Positions 12,115 through 16,030 of a stretch of 55,471 nucleotides of DNA are shown here, piece after piece (within the stretch, counting starts at the first letter, position 1; each line of letters opens with the position of its first letter). A model generated the notes under the pieces. It worked only from the letters and a program-made list of their open reading frames with translations, searched no databases and was not told where the DNA came from. The position numbers and the translations under genes were made by a program. Source of the stretch: an uncultured Candidatus Saccharibacteria bacterium (GTDB lineage: Bacteria > Patescibacteriota > Saccharimonadia > Saccharimonadales > CAZPPF01); NCBI GenBank assembly GCA_964588395.1, contig CAZPPF010000003.1:1-55471 (forward strand), in the 5' to 3' direction.

Positions 12115-13128
12115 ATGACTCAAGCAGAACAACCTCTAACACCTATGCAGCGACCACACGTAGTTACGCATGAGCGTCGCCCTGAAGAAACCGAAGTATT
12201 CTATGCGCGCAGTCTTGAAGATCCACTGGTTGTAGCCTTTGGAGACCAAAGCGATAGACAGCGTTTAGCAAGACTGGCATCAATGGGACTTCACGAGAGT
12301 ATTGGGAGTCACCAAGTTAGCAATGCAATAGATTTTGCCACCGATTATGCGTATCGGGCCTTTGGCATAGCTGATATACAACACGTTACCAAAGCAACCA
12401 ATTTTGCCGGTAACACCATTGAAAGAGAGCTGAAAACCAACGAACAGCTAACACCACTACAAAGAATGAAGCTTCAATCTCGACAATTGGACGTTATGAG
12501 TCTTCAGGTCTTTGGCCAGTACCATAGTGGCAAAGAAGCCCGCTCAGCCGATCAGAATAAAAAGGCTCTAACGCTGCTTGAAGCGTCTGCCAAAGATGTG
12601 ATTATAAGGGGGGCAGAAGCGCTCAAAACTGCTCAAAAAGTACACGAGGACTCAGGCGATCAAAAAATGCAGAGTGATATTAGGGGCTTAATGTTTGAGC
12701 AGCTGTTTATTACTTATCAACGCTTAAACGTGTATGAGCAGGAGCGTTATGATGAAACCGTGGTACTTGGGGCTACCGTTTTTGAAGACAATGCAGCTCG
12801 TAGCTATGAGCCCAAAAACCATAATTACGATGTGTTGGCCATGAATGCAGACGGTTCCACCGGAGAAGTTGTGCAGTGTAAGAATGCACAGGATGGCAAA
12901 CAGTACGAAAAACCTATTCGTAAAATTCAGGGACATAACTTTATTAGATTTGTTAGTAACCCCGATAAGTTTATTAGCGCTATTTCTCGATTAGCTAACA
13001 ATAGTGCCGGGGTGAGCGAACGACAGCTACAAGAAGACCAGGCACTATTAGACGACTTGTTTGAAGCAGAAAAAATCAATACTAATCCTATGCACCAGGT
13101 AGGCGAACTCGCCACCCTAAACAGTTAA
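12115..13128 (+). CDS. Hypothetical protein (337 aa), possibly with a PD-(D/E)xK-like C-terminal core
   Basis: Long ORF with an ATG start. The C-terminal segment ...FEDNAARSY...NYDVLAMNADGSTGEVVQCKNAQ has D...(E/Q)xK-like spacing. This is only a weak motif-level match. Confidence 0.6.
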   Translation: MTQAEQPLTPMQRPHVVTHERRPEETEVFYARSLEDPLVVAFGDQSDRQRLARLASMGLHESIGSHQVSNAIDFATDYAYRAFGIADIQHVTKATNFAGNTIERELKTNEQLTPLQRMKLQSRQLDVMSLQVFGQYHSGKEARSADQNKKALTLLEASAKDVIIRGAEALKTAQKVHEDSGDQKMQSDIRGLMFEQLFITYQRLNVYEQERYDETVVLGATVFEDNAARSYEPKNHNYDVLAMNADGSTGEVVQCKNAQDGKQYEKPIRKIQGHNFIRFVSNPDKFISAISRLANNSAGVSERQLQEDQALLDDLFEAEKINTNPMHQVGELATLNS

Positions 13129-13132
13129 AAAA

Positions 13133-14002
13133 CTACTGGTTGTCTAGGGTAAGCGAGGTACAGCGGATGTAGCCACCGCCCTTGCCGAGTTCGTTTACTT
13201 CAGGGGTAATGGTTTTGAGGCCGTGGGCTTCTAGCTGAGCCTTGAGCTTTGGCGCTCGAGCACTCATTACTACTGTTTCGCCAGTTGATACTAAGTTGCA
13301 GGCAAAGCCTTGGGTAGCTTCCTTACGCGTGACACGAATTTTTTCAATCGGCAATTTATCAAGTAGTTCACGGCTTTTTGGTACAAAGACACTCGGGCAA
13401 TAGGCAATTAAATCTTCGCGGATAACTGCTAGGGCTAGGTCTATGTCGTAATAGTAACTGTCTGGCCAGCCGGTTTCGTTATTAACCACTCTTTTTCCAA
13501 ATCCAAAGAGCGTGCGTTTGGGGATGGTTTGCAGGCCGATTACTTCATAGTCCAACAGCTCTTGGATGAGGGGCCAAGCTCTGATGCTCGTCCGATAGTT
13601 ACTACCCACAAATACGCGGTTGCCACAGGGCAGAGCATCGCCCTGACCGCTAAAGCGAATACCTTCAGGCAGGCGCAAAATGGTTTTACCTTGTTCGCGC
13701 AGGACTGATTCGGCATATGGTGTTTCGGCCTGGCGTTTGTTGGGGAGTGCCGACAGAAGGGCTTTATTGCCGCGGCATAGTGCCCAATTGGCGGTGTAGA
13801 CACCGTCCTGACAGTCTTTTGGCGCCGGAACCTTAATGACGCGAACCCCTGCTGATTCCAGAGCAGCTTGAATAGACCGATGTTCTTCAATAGCCTTTTC
13901 AACATTGACCGGAATATTTGAGTTCATGTAGGCATTAATTGCAAATTGATCGCTGAAATATTCGGCACCGGACATCAAAACCGTGGCGTTTATTTGTGGC
14001 AT
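13133..14002 (-). CDS. Amidinotransferase / DDAH-like enzyme (guanidino-group-modifying superfamily)
   Basis: The C-terminal GKGGGYIRCTSLTL is the catalytic-Cys signature of this superfamily. The start is set at the ATG at 14002 (MPQINATVLMSG), with TACAAT (14016-14011) 8 nt upstream. Confidence 0.75.
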   Translation of the reverse strand: MPQINATVLMSGAEYFSDQFAINAYMNSNIPVNVEKAIEEHRSIQAALESAGVRVIKVPAPKDCQDGVYTANWALCRGNKALLSALPNKRQAETPYAESVLREQGKTILRLPEGIRFSGQGDALPCGNRVFVGSNYRTSIRAWPLIQELLDYEVIGLQTIPKRTLFGFGKRVVNNETGWPDSYYYDIDLALAVIREDLIAYCPSVFVPKSRELLDKLPIEKIRVTRKEATQGFACNLVSTGETVVMSARAPKLKAQLEAHGLKTITPEVNELGKGGGYIRCTSLTLDNQ

Positions 14003-14183
14003 TATGGTCCATTGTACGACTGACGTGTTCCTAGCGCTAGCTGTTTGACAAAGCCTATACCTGGGGAGTAAAATTGCTTGCAAGTTAACCCTACATATGG
14101 TGGGAAAAGTTTTTATACAAAAACGGTTAACTACAAATACACGCGACAGTTGGTTTTCCGCGTTCTAAATAGAGCCAACGTAC

Positions 14184-14590
14184 GTTGAGATGATGATCCA
14201 ATAGAAGTGAATAAGAATCAAAAGATTGGTTCCTCTTCACTTCTATTGGAATAGAGAAAGGAACTATAACCTAGTCAATCCTTGCATTGGGGGACGCCAT
14301 GAAAATGGAAGAAGCCAGGAAGCTGGACGTTCGGATGCCTTCGGAGCGTTGGGGCAGCCGCCGCAAGTCACCTCACATGACGTGGACAGCAAGCCAAATT
14401 CAACTGCCGGACAGCACCAGGAGGTAGGGCTGCACAGCCAGCAACTCGTCAAAGGAGGTGCAACCAAGGTAGGCCTTGACTGAACAACCTCATTCGCGGC
14501 ATGGCAGCAGGCTGGGATATGGACTCTGTGGGTTCCCAACTCATTCTTCATATCCCAGCCTCGCCGTCCTTCTCTACTCATCATCTCAAC
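14184..14590 (+). ncRNA. Candidate large structured RNA of about 407 nt, class unknown
   Basis: Closing helix 14184-14196/14578-14590 (13 bp). Stacked hairpin 14197-14211/14236-14250 (15 bp). Helix 14252-14262/14567-14576 (10 bp plus a bulge). Hairpin 14509-14521/14549-14561 (13 bp). There is a GAAA tetraloop hairpin at 14297-14308 on the + strand only, and a terminator about 25 nt downstream. The region has no credible CDS. Confidence 0.4.
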
Positions 14591-14606
14591 TCTCACTCAC
14601 GCTTAT

Positions 14607-14637
14607 AAATAAAACACCCCAAGTAGGGGTGTTTTTA
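14607..14637. terminator. Bidirectional intrinsic terminator
   Basis: ACACCCC (14614-14620) pairs with GGGGTGT (14626-14632) around a 5-nt loop. It is flanked by AAATAAAA upstream and TTTT downstream, so it reads as stem plus U-tract on both strands. It sits between the + strand RNA candidate and the convergent 138-aa gene. Confidence 0.6.
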
Positions 14638-14722
14638 GTATCTAAAGGGTGGAAAGTCGGGCTTAGAAAATTGATGGGGAGGGGCGGAGCGACGGCTCGA
14701 CGCGTGTCCTCAGACCAATATT

Positions 14723-14783
14723 CCAAGCCCGTTGCCCGGATGGGGGTTTGCACTTCGTTGTGCCTACTCCCATCCGGGCTTGG
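14723..14783. other. Nested GC-rich stem-loop 10 nt beyond the stop of the 138-aa gene
   Basis: Outer stem CCAAGCCC (14723-14730) / GGGCTTGG (14776-14783). Inner stem GGATGGGGG (14738-14746) / CTCCCATCC (14767-14775). The inner stem contains one G-T pair that is a wobble only on the + strand. A third copy of CGGGCTT at 14658-14664 could compete for AAGCCCG. Confidence 0.4.
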
Positions 14784-14792
14784 TCCTACGAG

Positions 14793-15209
14793 CTACTCCA
14801 CGGAGTAAATAATTCCCTCGGGGGTGTTTTCTACCCTGAGGTGAGTGACTTCCGATTGAGCCTGAAGCTGATTCCTCTCTTCTTCAGAGAGTGCTGCGAG
14901 CCGGGTGTTGCCCTCGAGGATGAACTCCTCCGTCGTGATCTCGTGACCGTGCTTGTTGACGAACGCGATCTCGATGTGCGCATCATCACGCGAACTGCGA
15001 ATGATGGTCTCGACGCCGGACAGGCTGTTTGCCACGGATTCCATGATCTTCATGAAGTGACGGTTTGGTGCGAGGTCCAGGTACTGGATCTCTTCCGCCT
15101 CCTCATCCGAGTGGATCGTGACGACCTCGACGCACTTGATCTTGACGCGATCAGCGCCTCCCGGTCCTTCAACGTGTCCGTTGTGCTGCAGTATTACGCG
15201 GCTGCCCAC
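14793..15209 (-). CDS. Hypothetical acidic protein (138 aa) with foreign-looking codon usage
   Basis: GTG at 15209 is preceded by AGGAGG (15222-15217) with a 7-nt spacer and by a TTGACA promoter. About 29 of its first 40 codons end in G/C (hand count), against about 13 of the first 30 in groEL. No recognisable domain. The ORF-track start at 15284 would run through the promoter. Confidence 0.6.
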   Translation of the reverse strand: MGSRVILQHNGHVEGPGGADRVKIKCVEVVTIHSDEEAEEIQYLDLAPNRHFMKIMESVANSLSGVETIIRSSRDDAHIEIAFVNKHGHEITTEEFILEGNTRLAALSEEERNQLQAQSEVTHLRVENTPEGIIYSVE

Positions 15210-15254
15210 GTAGTTGCCTCCTGGTTGGTATTGCGGTAGCCAATAGGATACGAA

Positions 15255-15283
15255 AATAGTATAAAATTTGACTTTATTTGTCA
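15255..15283 (-). promoter_or_regulatory. Sigma-70-type promoter for the 138-aa gene
   Basis: On the - strand, TTGACA (15283-15278) is followed by a 15-17 nt spacer and TATACT/TACTAT (15262-15255). The leader of about 40 nt ends in AGGAGG. Confidence 0.5.
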
Positions 15284-15334
15284 AACGTTCTCTTATTGCA
15301 AAAAAGATGATTATGTTTTAGACTTGTGGTATCT

Positions 15335-15940
15335 ATGAGTGAATCTGAAAGACACCACCATGAGCCTACACCTCCACGCAACGACGATATCGAAGTTGCT
15401 GCAGAGGGTTTGTATGCTCGTAGCGAGGGCGTAAAGGTAGCACTTGGCGTTTGGACTAAGGCTCGAAAAATGGATGAAGCATTGAGGCAGGGTACCGAAG
15501 AACCATCACGACAGTTTGTAGTGCGTGTAGAGGTTGGTGGCCTCATGTCCGCCCAAGACTATCCTTTTGCTCACGATACAGTGCTATTACGTCCTACACG
15601 ACAAAGCGCAAGAGTTTGGGGTACAGACCATGCAATTATGTTGCGTTTGGGGCTAAGCCAGCGACACCCAACGCAAGGTTTACAACCCAACGAACAAGTG
15701 GTGCTAACCCATGAACACGGTGGTGAAAGGGATAAGACACTTCTACTTAATGATCTGGTCTATGGGGTAGTAACTGATCCCCGACAATTTAAAGTTGTCA
15801 GTGAAGGCACTTACCAGGAGCTACAGGGAGCACAAGGTGAACTAGAACAAGAAGAATTTAATCCAGATGAATTTAAAGCCATGCTTGAAGATTTTGAACC
15901 CACGCTCCACTTACCTCCTCAATTTTACAAAGCGTCTTGA
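15335..15940 (+). CDS. Hypothetical acidic protein (201 aa)
   Basis: ORF with ATG at 15335 (MSESERHHHEPTPP...); an alternative GTG lies at 15326. A candidate promoter is TTGCAA (15295-15300), an 18-nt spacer, then TAGACT (15319-15324). No recognisable domain. Confidence 0.55.
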   Translation: MSESERHHHEPTPPRNDDIEVAAEGLYARSEGVKVALGVWTKARKMDEALRQGTEEPSRQFVVRVEVGGLMSAQDYPFAHDTVLLRPTRQSARVWGTDHAIMLRLGLSQRHPTQGLQPNEQVVLTHEHGGERDKTLLLNDLVYGVVTDPRQFKVVSEGTYQELQGAQGELEQEEFNPDEFKAMLEDFEPTLHLPPQFYKAS

Positions 15941-15966
15941 CAGTAGTTTCGATTTTCCAGTAGTAT
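15937..15966 (+). promoter_or_regulatory. groESL promoter candidate
   Basis: TTGACA (15937-15942), 18-nt spacer, TAGTAT (15961-15966), immediately upstream of the CIRCE element. Confidence 0.5.
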
Positions 15967-15977
15967 AACTCTGTTAA

Positions 15978-16004
15978 TTAGCACTCTCATAGTGAAAGTG
16001 CTAG
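15978..16004 (+). promoter_or_regulatory. CIRCE operator (HrcA-binding inverted repeat)
   Basis: TTAGCACTC-TCATAGTGA-AAGTGCTAG compared with the consensus TTAGCACTC-N9-GAGTGCTAA. The left arm is perfect and the right arm matches 7/9. It is 27 nt upstream of groES. Confidence 0.7.
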
Positions 16005-16030
16005 CGATTCATAACTAAGGGGAGGAACCT

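Follow-up and report, generated by a model that had tools for sequence, protein, structure and literature searches.

To our knowledge, long-range pairing of both untranslated ends of a bacterial messenger RNA (mRNA) is on record for only a handful of single genes, namely icaR, hbs, hok and aapA1. RNase III processing stems enclose the ribosomal RNAs (rRNAs), and some 23S rRNA intervening sequences carry an open reading frame (ORF) together with terminal inverted repeats. Here we describe a 407-nucleotide (nt) element at 14184-14590 of a 55,471-nt stretch of Saccharimonadales DNA (the window), which is the core of what we call an A unit and which an initial annotation had proposed to be a novel large non-coding RNA (ncRNA) of the ornate kind. 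A motif in the 3' untranslated region (UTR) of the Staphylococcus aureus icaR mRNA is reported to pair with the Shine-Dalgarno (SD) region and to block initiation, the duplex being an RNase III substrate (PMC3868564), and a 5'/3'-UTR interaction is described for the hbs mRNA of Bacillus subtilis (PMC5737220). The full-length aapA1 transcript is reported to fold in a way that impedes translation until 3' processing (PMC5416894). Cassettes of a different type, the promoter-early stem-loops (PeSL), are found in hyperplastic regions of T4-type phages, and their repeated modules, it is reported, could mediate modular exchange (PMC2839356, PMC4122927).

Our analysis indicates that A units are a previously undescribed family of about 25 members in Saccharimonadales, a lineage of the candidate phyla radiation (CPR). 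Their frame of paired ends is conserved, covaries, is selected as a plus-strand RNA and evolves far slower than the ORF it encloses. On balance we favour, with reasonable though far from full confidence, the reading that the A unit is a translated mRNA cassette in which a conserved paired-end frame encloses an orphan gene. In way of working, icaR and hbs are the closest systems, since there, too, a bacterial mRNA pairs its own 3' and 5' untranslated regions (PMC3868564, PMC5737220); the 3' motif is rich in pyrimidines and its 5' partner rich in purines, as in the A units. Both of those are single conserved genes, whereas the A frame is that of a multi-member family with a different gene inside in each genome. 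The A unit shares with the rRNA stems and the 23S intervening sequences a long stem that is built from parts hundreds of nt apart and encloses a variable insert, and differs from them in lying outside any rRNA gene and in having its own promoter, ribosome-binding site and terminator.

An inverted-repeat search together with folding bears out the four helices that had first been noticed in the window, P1, P2, P3 and HP3 (Table 1). The 407-nt stretch has a minimum free energy (MFE) of -166.8 kcal/mol, compared with -122.9 +/- 5.7 kcal/mol for dinucleotide shuffles (z = -7.7; 0 of 100 shuffles were as stable), which amounts to an excess stability of 44 kcal/mol, and the predicted whole transcript (14078-14645) folds with z = -6.4. 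By our own arithmetic, about 0.005 perfect 13-mer inverted repeats are expected by chance in an 800-nt region. P2 has 15 perfect basal pairs, its 25-nt arms being 88% complementary overall, and the P3 duplex is stronger than duplexes with shuffled tails (z = -3.0 in the window; mean z = -1.8 over 19 members). The interior (14263-14505) has z = +0.50, and 140 of 200 shuffles fold as well; all of the excess stability sits in the terminal frame and none in the core. The ornate RNA of 407 nt with a structured, GC-rich core of some 300 nt is thus not what we find, as only the leader, P1, P2, P3 and HP3 are conserved and significantly structured, and the core is hypervariable in sequence and in length (about 260 to 1385 nt) with structure at chance level. 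The small hairpins pointed out in it (CCAT-GAAA-ATGG, CCAG-GAAG-CTGG and CAAGG-TAGG-CCTTG) do exist in the window, but they were not confirmed as meaningful, given the z value of the interior, which is moreover unalignable in homologues.

Table 1. Positions of the A unit, element B and the convergent orphan gene in the window.
Feature	Position	Strand	Remarks
Sigma-70-type promoter	14045..14074	+	TTGACA, 18 nt, TAAAAT; 11/12 matches in consensus scan
Putative transcription start	near 14081	+	Placed from promoter position
Conserved 5' leader	14081..14183	+	AAGTTAAC box, hairpin L1, hairpin P0, GTAC motif
Leader hairpin L1	14083-90 with 14124-31	+	From fold
Leader hairpin P0	14149-57 with 14171-79	+	From fold
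GTAC motif	14180-83	+	Immediately 5' of P1
P1	14184-14196 (GTTGAGATGATGA) with 14578-14590 (TCATCATCTCAAC)	+	Perfect 13-bp pairing
P2, long hairpin	14197-14250	+	Directly 3' of the P1 5' arm; covariance model match
P3	Purine run 14252-14262 with pyrimidine-rich tail 14567-14576	+	One bulged A; in centroid and MFE folds
Variable interior (cargo)	14263..14508	+	Unconserved, no significant structure
SD-like GGGGGA	14289..14294	+	4 nt 5' of ATG; same position as SD of homologues
42-codon orphan ORF	14299..14427	+	MKMEEARKLDVRMPSERWGSRRKSPHMTWTASQIQLPDSTRR; predicted to be translated
HP3, conserved 3' hairpin	14509-14561 (stem 14509-21 with 14549-61)	+	Perfect 13-bp stem
Intrinsic terminator	14611..14640	Bidirectional	AAAACACCCC-AAGTA-GGGGTGTTTTT; stem 14611-20 with 14626-35, then T run
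Element B	14650-14790	- (orientation)	Between shared terminator and stop of 138-aa orphan gene
138-aa orphan gene	14793-15209	-	Promoter-like site 15284-15256; converges on bidirectional terminator

The element was also in line with its first description in lacking any known family. A search of the whole window against Rfam at gathering thresholds gave only a tRNA (2060-2146), the region 13950-14850 at E <= 10 gave nothing beyond miRNA and snoRNA noise of less than 20 bits, and four homologous loci gave no match. The element reached the gathering threshold of no Rfam 15 family, including RNase P, tmRNA, 6S, SRP, OLE, GOLLD, ROOL, HEARO, raiA, group I/II introns, riboswitches and T-box. Size, GC richness relative to the genome and intergenic position are features that the A unit has in common with the large ornate ncRNAs (OLE, GOLLD, ROOL, HEARO, raiA) and with RNase P, tmRNA, 6S, SRP and the group I/II introns; those RNAs, however, are conserved and structured throughout, while the interior of the A unit is unstructured and unconserved and gave no Rfam match at E <= 10. 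With conserved untranslated ends that pair around a fast-changing orphan ORF, the A element looks more like a structured mRNA frame than like a large ornate ncRNA.

Homologous loci (L numbers) were gathered by a protein-anchored scan for the flanking DDAH-like amidinotransferase (PF19420), which yielded 80 genome and 80 metagenome loci. The best matches of this protein were Saccharimonadales metagenome-assembled genomes, with up to 81% amino-acid identity, an exact-protein look-up gave no match, and the genomes with homologues at this locus have a flanking protein that is only 56-81% identical. With nhmmer, L025 was found to have a homologue at the corresponding locus, searches combining motif, inverted repeat and hairpins found 22 full A units, and a covariance model of the 5' module (R1) added matches in L134, L013 and L096 and a truncated 5' half in L003. 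Three candidates from the inverted-repeat screen (L004, L008 and L034) were without the architecture and were discarded as chance repeats. A phage origin was also considered and rejected, as a scan of viral contigs with the P1+P2 pattern gave one chance match inside a phage coding region.

The majority of units are located between the amidinotransferase gene and groES-groEL, on the groES strand. The interval between these divergent genes (14003-16030 in the window; compared over L002-L161) is a hot spot, which reaches 5.8 kb, is 'empty' (133-146 nt) in the five genomes L028, L031, L043, L056 and L067, and where filled is taken up by A and B units (for the latter see below) and by diverse orphan genes. 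Two units are found at other loci (L007 7803-8633 and L017 7724-8347), with unrelated arms (TACTGACAGAAGAG and AAGAGGAAGAAAAGC) and the same architecture, and tandem pairs of units with differing arm sequences are present in L005 (2389-2957 and 628-2190) and L032 (5259-5810 and 4509-5072). The different arms of the tandem pairs and the unrelated arms of the units elsewhere suggest that the family spreads by duplication, each unit keeping arms that match each other.

The anatomy of the units is shared; almost every one has a promoter and a conserved leader of about 100 nt, and nearly all close with a terminator. A promoter of the TTGACA/TATAAT type, read from the sequences of the homologues 100-115 nt upstream of the 5' arm, is followed by an AATTTAA-type box with hairpin L1, hairpin P0 and the motif GYAC-N-TTGAGAT, then by the P1 5' arm, P2, the purine run that is the 5' strand of P3, a small hairpin and the SD with start codon, and after the variable interior by HP3, the pyrimidine-rich tail that is the 3' strand of P3, the P1 3' arm and an intrinsic terminator. 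In the leader alignment the AATTTAA box comes after the -10 box, and GYAC-N-TTGAGAT is common to the leaders and marks the start of the P1 5' arm. The P1 arms are perfect in all members, with 11-17 bp, and the 5' arm pairs with a 3' arm 400-1560 nt downstream across the family. The P2 stem often contains TGGAAGC/GCTTCCA and HP3 often a GGGYCYGGGTGG-type stem; the SD and start codon are located 32-95 nt downstream of P2. Of 13 homologues inspected, 12 have a hairpin with T run 25-35 nt downstream of the 3' arm, similarly to what had been noted for the window, whose terminator is common to the A unit and the convergent minus-strand orphan gene. From the position of the window promoter the transcript is predicted to be about 560 nt (14081-14640), longer than the 430-450 nt first expected, so that the A unit would be an independent plus-strand transcription unit with the 407-nt element as its core.

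The window leader is about 75% identical to that of L087. Within it, ACGCG (14141-45, in the segment 14141-14179) is able to pair with CGCGT (14159-63), which would place GTTGG of P0 in a loop and make P0 and the alternative fold mutually exclusive, and L087 has an equivalent GCCGCG/CGCGGC. Such alternative leader folds may form a switch.

Covariation was assessed with ungapped helix strands of 18 members, with P1 anchored on GAGAT and P2 and HP3 on their own stems; MAFFT on whole 5'+3' chimeras was judged too unreliable, and helix-only constructs were therefore used for the pair counts. The fraction of paired cells was 95.3%, a figure which the anchoring on each sequence's own stems inflates, compared with 65.2% with shuffled partners and 31-40% with slid partners. 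Changes on both sides were found in 30 of 34 pairs (9 of 12 in the motif-anchored P1, 11 of 12 in P2 and 10 of 10 in HP3), and the covariation score of 0.80, against 0.19, was reached by none of 500 shuffles. With respect to the strand, folding energy is uninformative, since the minus strand of the 407-nt stretch (-165.9 kcal/mol, z = -7.4) is as stable as the plus strand and the difference has no consistent sign over the 22 members. The strand is thus assignable only from homologues, and the energies were replaced by a count of G.U pairs against A.C oppositions, the latter being what would read as G.U on the minus strand. P2 has 44 G.U pairs on the plus strand and 13 A.C oppositions. R1 finds the window unit at 14176-14262 on the plus strand with 58 bits (E = 4e-12) and scores 32 bits on the minus strand. 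The G.U excess, the promoters, the terminators and the asymmetric R1 scores together point to a functional RNA on the plus strand, and the proposal of a structured RNA that ends in a terminator of its own is in this respect supported, a promoter and the covarying helices of the homologues being added to it.

Some of these features could also be expected from an element acting as DNA, either the remnant of a miniature inverted-repeat transposable element (MITE) or of another transposon with terminal inverted repeats, or an invertible segment with the 13-17 bp repeats as recombinase sites. The terminal repeats are perfect in all members and their TTGAGAT core is conserved, the helices are nearly mismatch-free, the energies of the two strands cannot be told apart, and the site is a hypervariable hot spot that is 'empty' in other genomes. 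On the other hand, the window holds exactly one A unit in its 55 kb, with no further copy found by blastn, by a 13-mer search allowing two mismatches, by a structural detector or by the covariance model. The flanks of 14 members (GYAC-N at the 5' side, C-rich or CTTATAA-type at the 3' side) have no direct repeat that would indicate a target-site duplication. Position and orientation relative to the flanking genes, promoter and terminator are constant and no copy examined is inverted; in every one (22 full members and the R1 matches) P2 faces the promoter and HP3 the terminator. The arms covary between genomes and differ between the tandem copies of L005 and L032, which is unlike a shared recombinase site, and P2 and HP3 covary as well, with the plus-strand G.U excess. 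No transposase or recombinase was found among the cargo ORFs, the window itself not having been screened for recombinases. We therefore consider a DNA-level element hardly likely at all, and the caveat of the initial annotation that the palindromes might be MITE-like is answered by the single copy, the lack of target-site duplications and the same locus across genomes. An integron gene cassette was rejected too, as the repeats flank the ORF where a 3' attC would be expected, the arms are unlike GTTRRRY/RYYYAAC, and no integrase is present among the neighbouring ORFs.

The interior of the A units is cargo and at least often coding. Of the 22 members, 15 have an SD and a start codon that opens an ORF of 20 or more codons, compared with 18% of shuffles, and four more members, the window included, have SD sites of the GGGGG type. 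In the nine largest members tested (140-267 codons) the longest plus-strand frame exceeds that of shuffles (P <= 0.04), and the cargo ORFs have the coding signature GC1 > GC2 < GC3. The core, supposed to be non-coding, thus opens with a ribosome-binding site and start codon, and in the larger homologues it is clearly protein-coding; for the window, the statement that no credible coding sequence is present has to be qualified by the 42-codon ORF (GC by codon position 0.50/0.55/0.69) that follows GGGGGA, located where nearly every homologue carries its SD and start codon. The transcript would accordingly be translated, the predicted product in the window being a basic peptide of 42 amino acids (aa).

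The cargo products range from 36 to 259 aa, and many of the short ones (36-74 aa) are very basic, with isoelectric points of 11-12, in part because their composition is T-poor and GC-rich, as is seen in other frames as well. They are mutually unrelated (no match at E < 0.005 in all-against-all BLASTP) and gave no Pfam or PHROG family. For the 42-aa product no genuine relative turned up among 1.84 billion representatives, the sole match being spurious and without an alignable stretch, and the 259-aa product of L002 is a singleton among 5.8 billion proteins. The cargo ORFs (e.g. those of L023, L037, L025 and L032a) have a GC3 of 0.7-0.89, compared with 0.41-0.58 for the long genes in most of the loci concerned. 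Relative to their host loci, most A units have a GC content that is higher by 4-10 points. Three explanations could each account for the GC excess: the sequences may be foreign, GC-biased gene conversion may act on them at a recombination hot spot, or the RNA may be under selection.

The difference in conservation between frame and cargo is seen directly in closely related units. L134 and L140, as read from their alignment, are about 85-90% identical from promoter to start codon and about 93% from HP3 to the 3' arm, while their proteins (180 and 144 aa) have 31% identity over only 78 residues and the ORFs are full of indels. Between the window and L087, an alignment is possible for the leader, for P1 and for the P2 base but not for the interior. 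The two closest pairs by amidinotransferase (75-77% identity) have 5' and 3' modules of 62-71% nucleotide identity, with interiors at random level. A constant frame would give any cargo ORF identical expression and regulation, and this would explain why the frame is conserved amid the turnover of its cargo.

As P1 and P3 are separated by only 1 nt on the 3' strand, they would form a quasi-continuous duplex of about 23 bp with P2 branching off, which has the size of an RNase III substrate and favours a role as a double-stranded determinant of processing or stability. RNase III would be the likeliest enzyme, and could either excise the ORF-bearing loop from leader and terminator or set the lifetime of the loop; judged from the sequences, this step is possible but doubtful. 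Alternatively, the conserved GYAC-N-TTGAGAT and TGGAAGC motifs might be read by a protein. A masking of the SD by the 3' end, as in the defining pairing of icaR, is not supported for the A units. The tail-SD duplex is at chance level (mean z = -0.15 against shuffled tails), compared with the mean of -1.8 for the tail with the purine run, and the predicted unpaired probability of SD and start is 0.39 in full-length units and 0.38 without the 3' module (19 members). The predicted accessibility of SD and start also equals that of the interior. The A-unit tail hence differs from the icaR motif in pairing with the purine run upstream of the SD (P3), the SD itself not being preferentially covered. 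The modelled structures suggest that the duplex probably acts without masking the ribosome-binding site.

The same data bear on the possibility that A units are type I toxin-like mRNAs, comparable to hok/sok or aapA1/IsoA1, whose fold-back keeps the toxin message inert until 3' processing. The long-range pairing by P1 and P3 does close an mRNA of 400-600 nt with a small ORF, and many of the cargo peptides are short and very basic. End-to-end pairing of a small-ORF mRNA of this size, with structure rather than sequence conserved across species, is indeed a feature of hok/sok and of aapA1 (PMC5416894) as well. In hok/sok and aapA1/IsoA1 terms, however, the A-unit peptides are wrong, being hydrophilic or charged without a membrane-spanning segment (the 42-aa product is basic and hydrophilic), and cargo of up to 259 aa is too large. 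A consensus scan, the only search made, found no minus-strand promoter-like site for an antisense RNA in 14003-14640. No 3'-dependent masking of the SD is predicted, given that its accessibility does not depend on the 3' module and that the complementarity of the 3' tail to the SD is at chance. We regard a toxin of this type as very improbable.

Several observations weigh against a translated cassette with a processed paired end. Shuffled sequences yield open frames as long as the longest one of the window (P = 0.14) and of the other short members, and L111 and L077 have no convincing SD and ATG, so that translation may be dispensable and the frame could act as RNA itself. P1 is separated from P2 by anything from 0 to 9 nt, depending on the member, which means that the geometry of the junction is not fixed. 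P1 is fully Watson-Crick in every member and TTGAGAT is kept as sequence, neither of which is needed by plain selection for an RNA helix. The involvement of RNase III is deduced purely from the length of the duplex. The inflation of the paired fraction by stem anchoring belongs here as well, despite which the motif-anchored P1 keeps its covarying pairs.

These points are to some extent those expected if the frame itself functioned as an RNA, non-coding or with a dual role, by binding a protein or a second RNA, with the interior as a tolerated insert and the ORFs incidental or secondary. Conservation is far higher in the untranslated parts than in the ORF, sequence motifs are kept in helices and junctions (GYAC-N-TTGAGAT, and TGGAAGC/GCTTCCA in P2), L111 and L077 have no convincing ORF, and the frames of the short members are of chance length. 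Target-binding motifs of regulatory RNAs such as S. aureus RNAIII resemble the CCUCC-type pyrimidine-rich tails. This reading is nevertheless opposed by the strong enrichment of SD and start codon at a fixed position, by the large members, which carry real genes with coding-type composition of the codon positions, by an interior without conserved or above-chance structure, and by the pyrimidine tail, which is predicted to be occupied in P3. Because of the reversed conservation pattern and the members without ORF we keep a functional RNA in consideration as an unlikely, though not negligible, alternative to the translated cassette.

In evolutionary behaviour the A unit is most like the PeSL cassettes (PMC2839356). 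In both cases conserved modules of promoter and stem-loop or terminator flank non-homologous orphan ORFs in a hypervariable region, the interval ranging here from 133 nt to 5.8 kb, and tandem units occur here too (L005, L032). PeSLs are short phage DNA or regulatory motifs for which no pairing across the ORF is reported. A modules differ in being chromosomal in a CPR bacterium, with about 220 nt at the 5' side and about 80 nt at the 3' side that pair as RNA. Products of recombination were not seen among the A units, the closest pairs of which have 75-77% amidinotransferase identity. One may speculate, tentatively and with more doubt than belief, that Saccharimonadales possess in the A frame a native RNA-framed 'orphan-gene chassis', selected as RNA, which hosts unrelated ORFs that are fast-evolving, newly born or captured and which multiplies by duplication in the hot spot, and that orphan genes of the opposite strand are served in the same way by element B, a second and unrelated conserved 3' module. 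Were this so, it would be a functional parallel to integron cassettes and phage PeSL modules that is built on end-to-end mRNA pairing, the unit under selection would be the frame rather than the protein, and the locus could serve as a nursery in which new genes arise, or else as an arms-race locus of the epibiont lifestyle.

Compared with the single genes in which such end pairing has been described, it occurs here in about 25 members of one family, which show strong covariation, and in an uncultivated lineage of ultra-small genomes. The usual relation between frame and cargo is also reversed, in that the untranslated frame is kept and the enclosed protein is unrecognisable between genomes. 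This makes testable the expression and turnover of orphan genes in CPR bacteria, the use of a constant RNA frame as a generic platform for expression or processing, and the amidinotransferase-groES hot spot as an arms-race locus. A and B are in addition two new candidate RNA motifs and potential additions to Rfam.

The stretch of 790 nt in which the A unit lies, at first taken to be free of genes, houses besides the 42-codon ORF a second, separate conserved structure, element B. It consists of a hairpin (CCCGGATGGG...CCCATCCGGG) and a long stem (GGGCTTGG...CCAAGCCC) around a conserved GCAGGC...GCCTCCAC hairpin. Other loci contain twelve homologues, with compensatory changes in 19 of 27 predicted pairs, and element B gave no Rfam match. 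Since it always lies 3' of a different minus-strand orphan ORF and is followed by a terminator, B looks like the 3' module of a second type of orphan-gene cassette. A role as riboswitch-like leader of the amidinotransferase gene was rejected, because a separate TACAAT box serves that gene and B is invariably found behind an orphan ORF of the minus strand.

The 138-aa orphan gene that precedes B has a GC content of 55-57%, compared with 46% for the window, and its product gave no Pfam or PHROG match. By exact-protein look-up it is on record on one other contig, L001 (1.4 kb, ENA ERZ27252334), which is identical to the window over 14474-14792 and so offers no variation to analyse.

The TACAAT box of the amidinotransferase gene lies about 8 nt 5' of its ATG (14003-14030, minus strand; start codon at 14002), is kept in L114 and L013, with a similar box in L008, and suggests from its position a leaderless or near-leaderless mRNA. 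Two adjoining plus-strand ORFs have no Pfam family, one at 12115-13128 (337 aa) and one at 15326-15940 (204 aa), the latter also without a PHROG family. The end of the 204-aa ORF is overlapped by a separate TTGACA/TAGTAT promoter of groES near 15937-15968, and groES has a CIRCE operator at 15978-16004 (TTAGCACTC-N9-GTGCTAGC), as in other loci.

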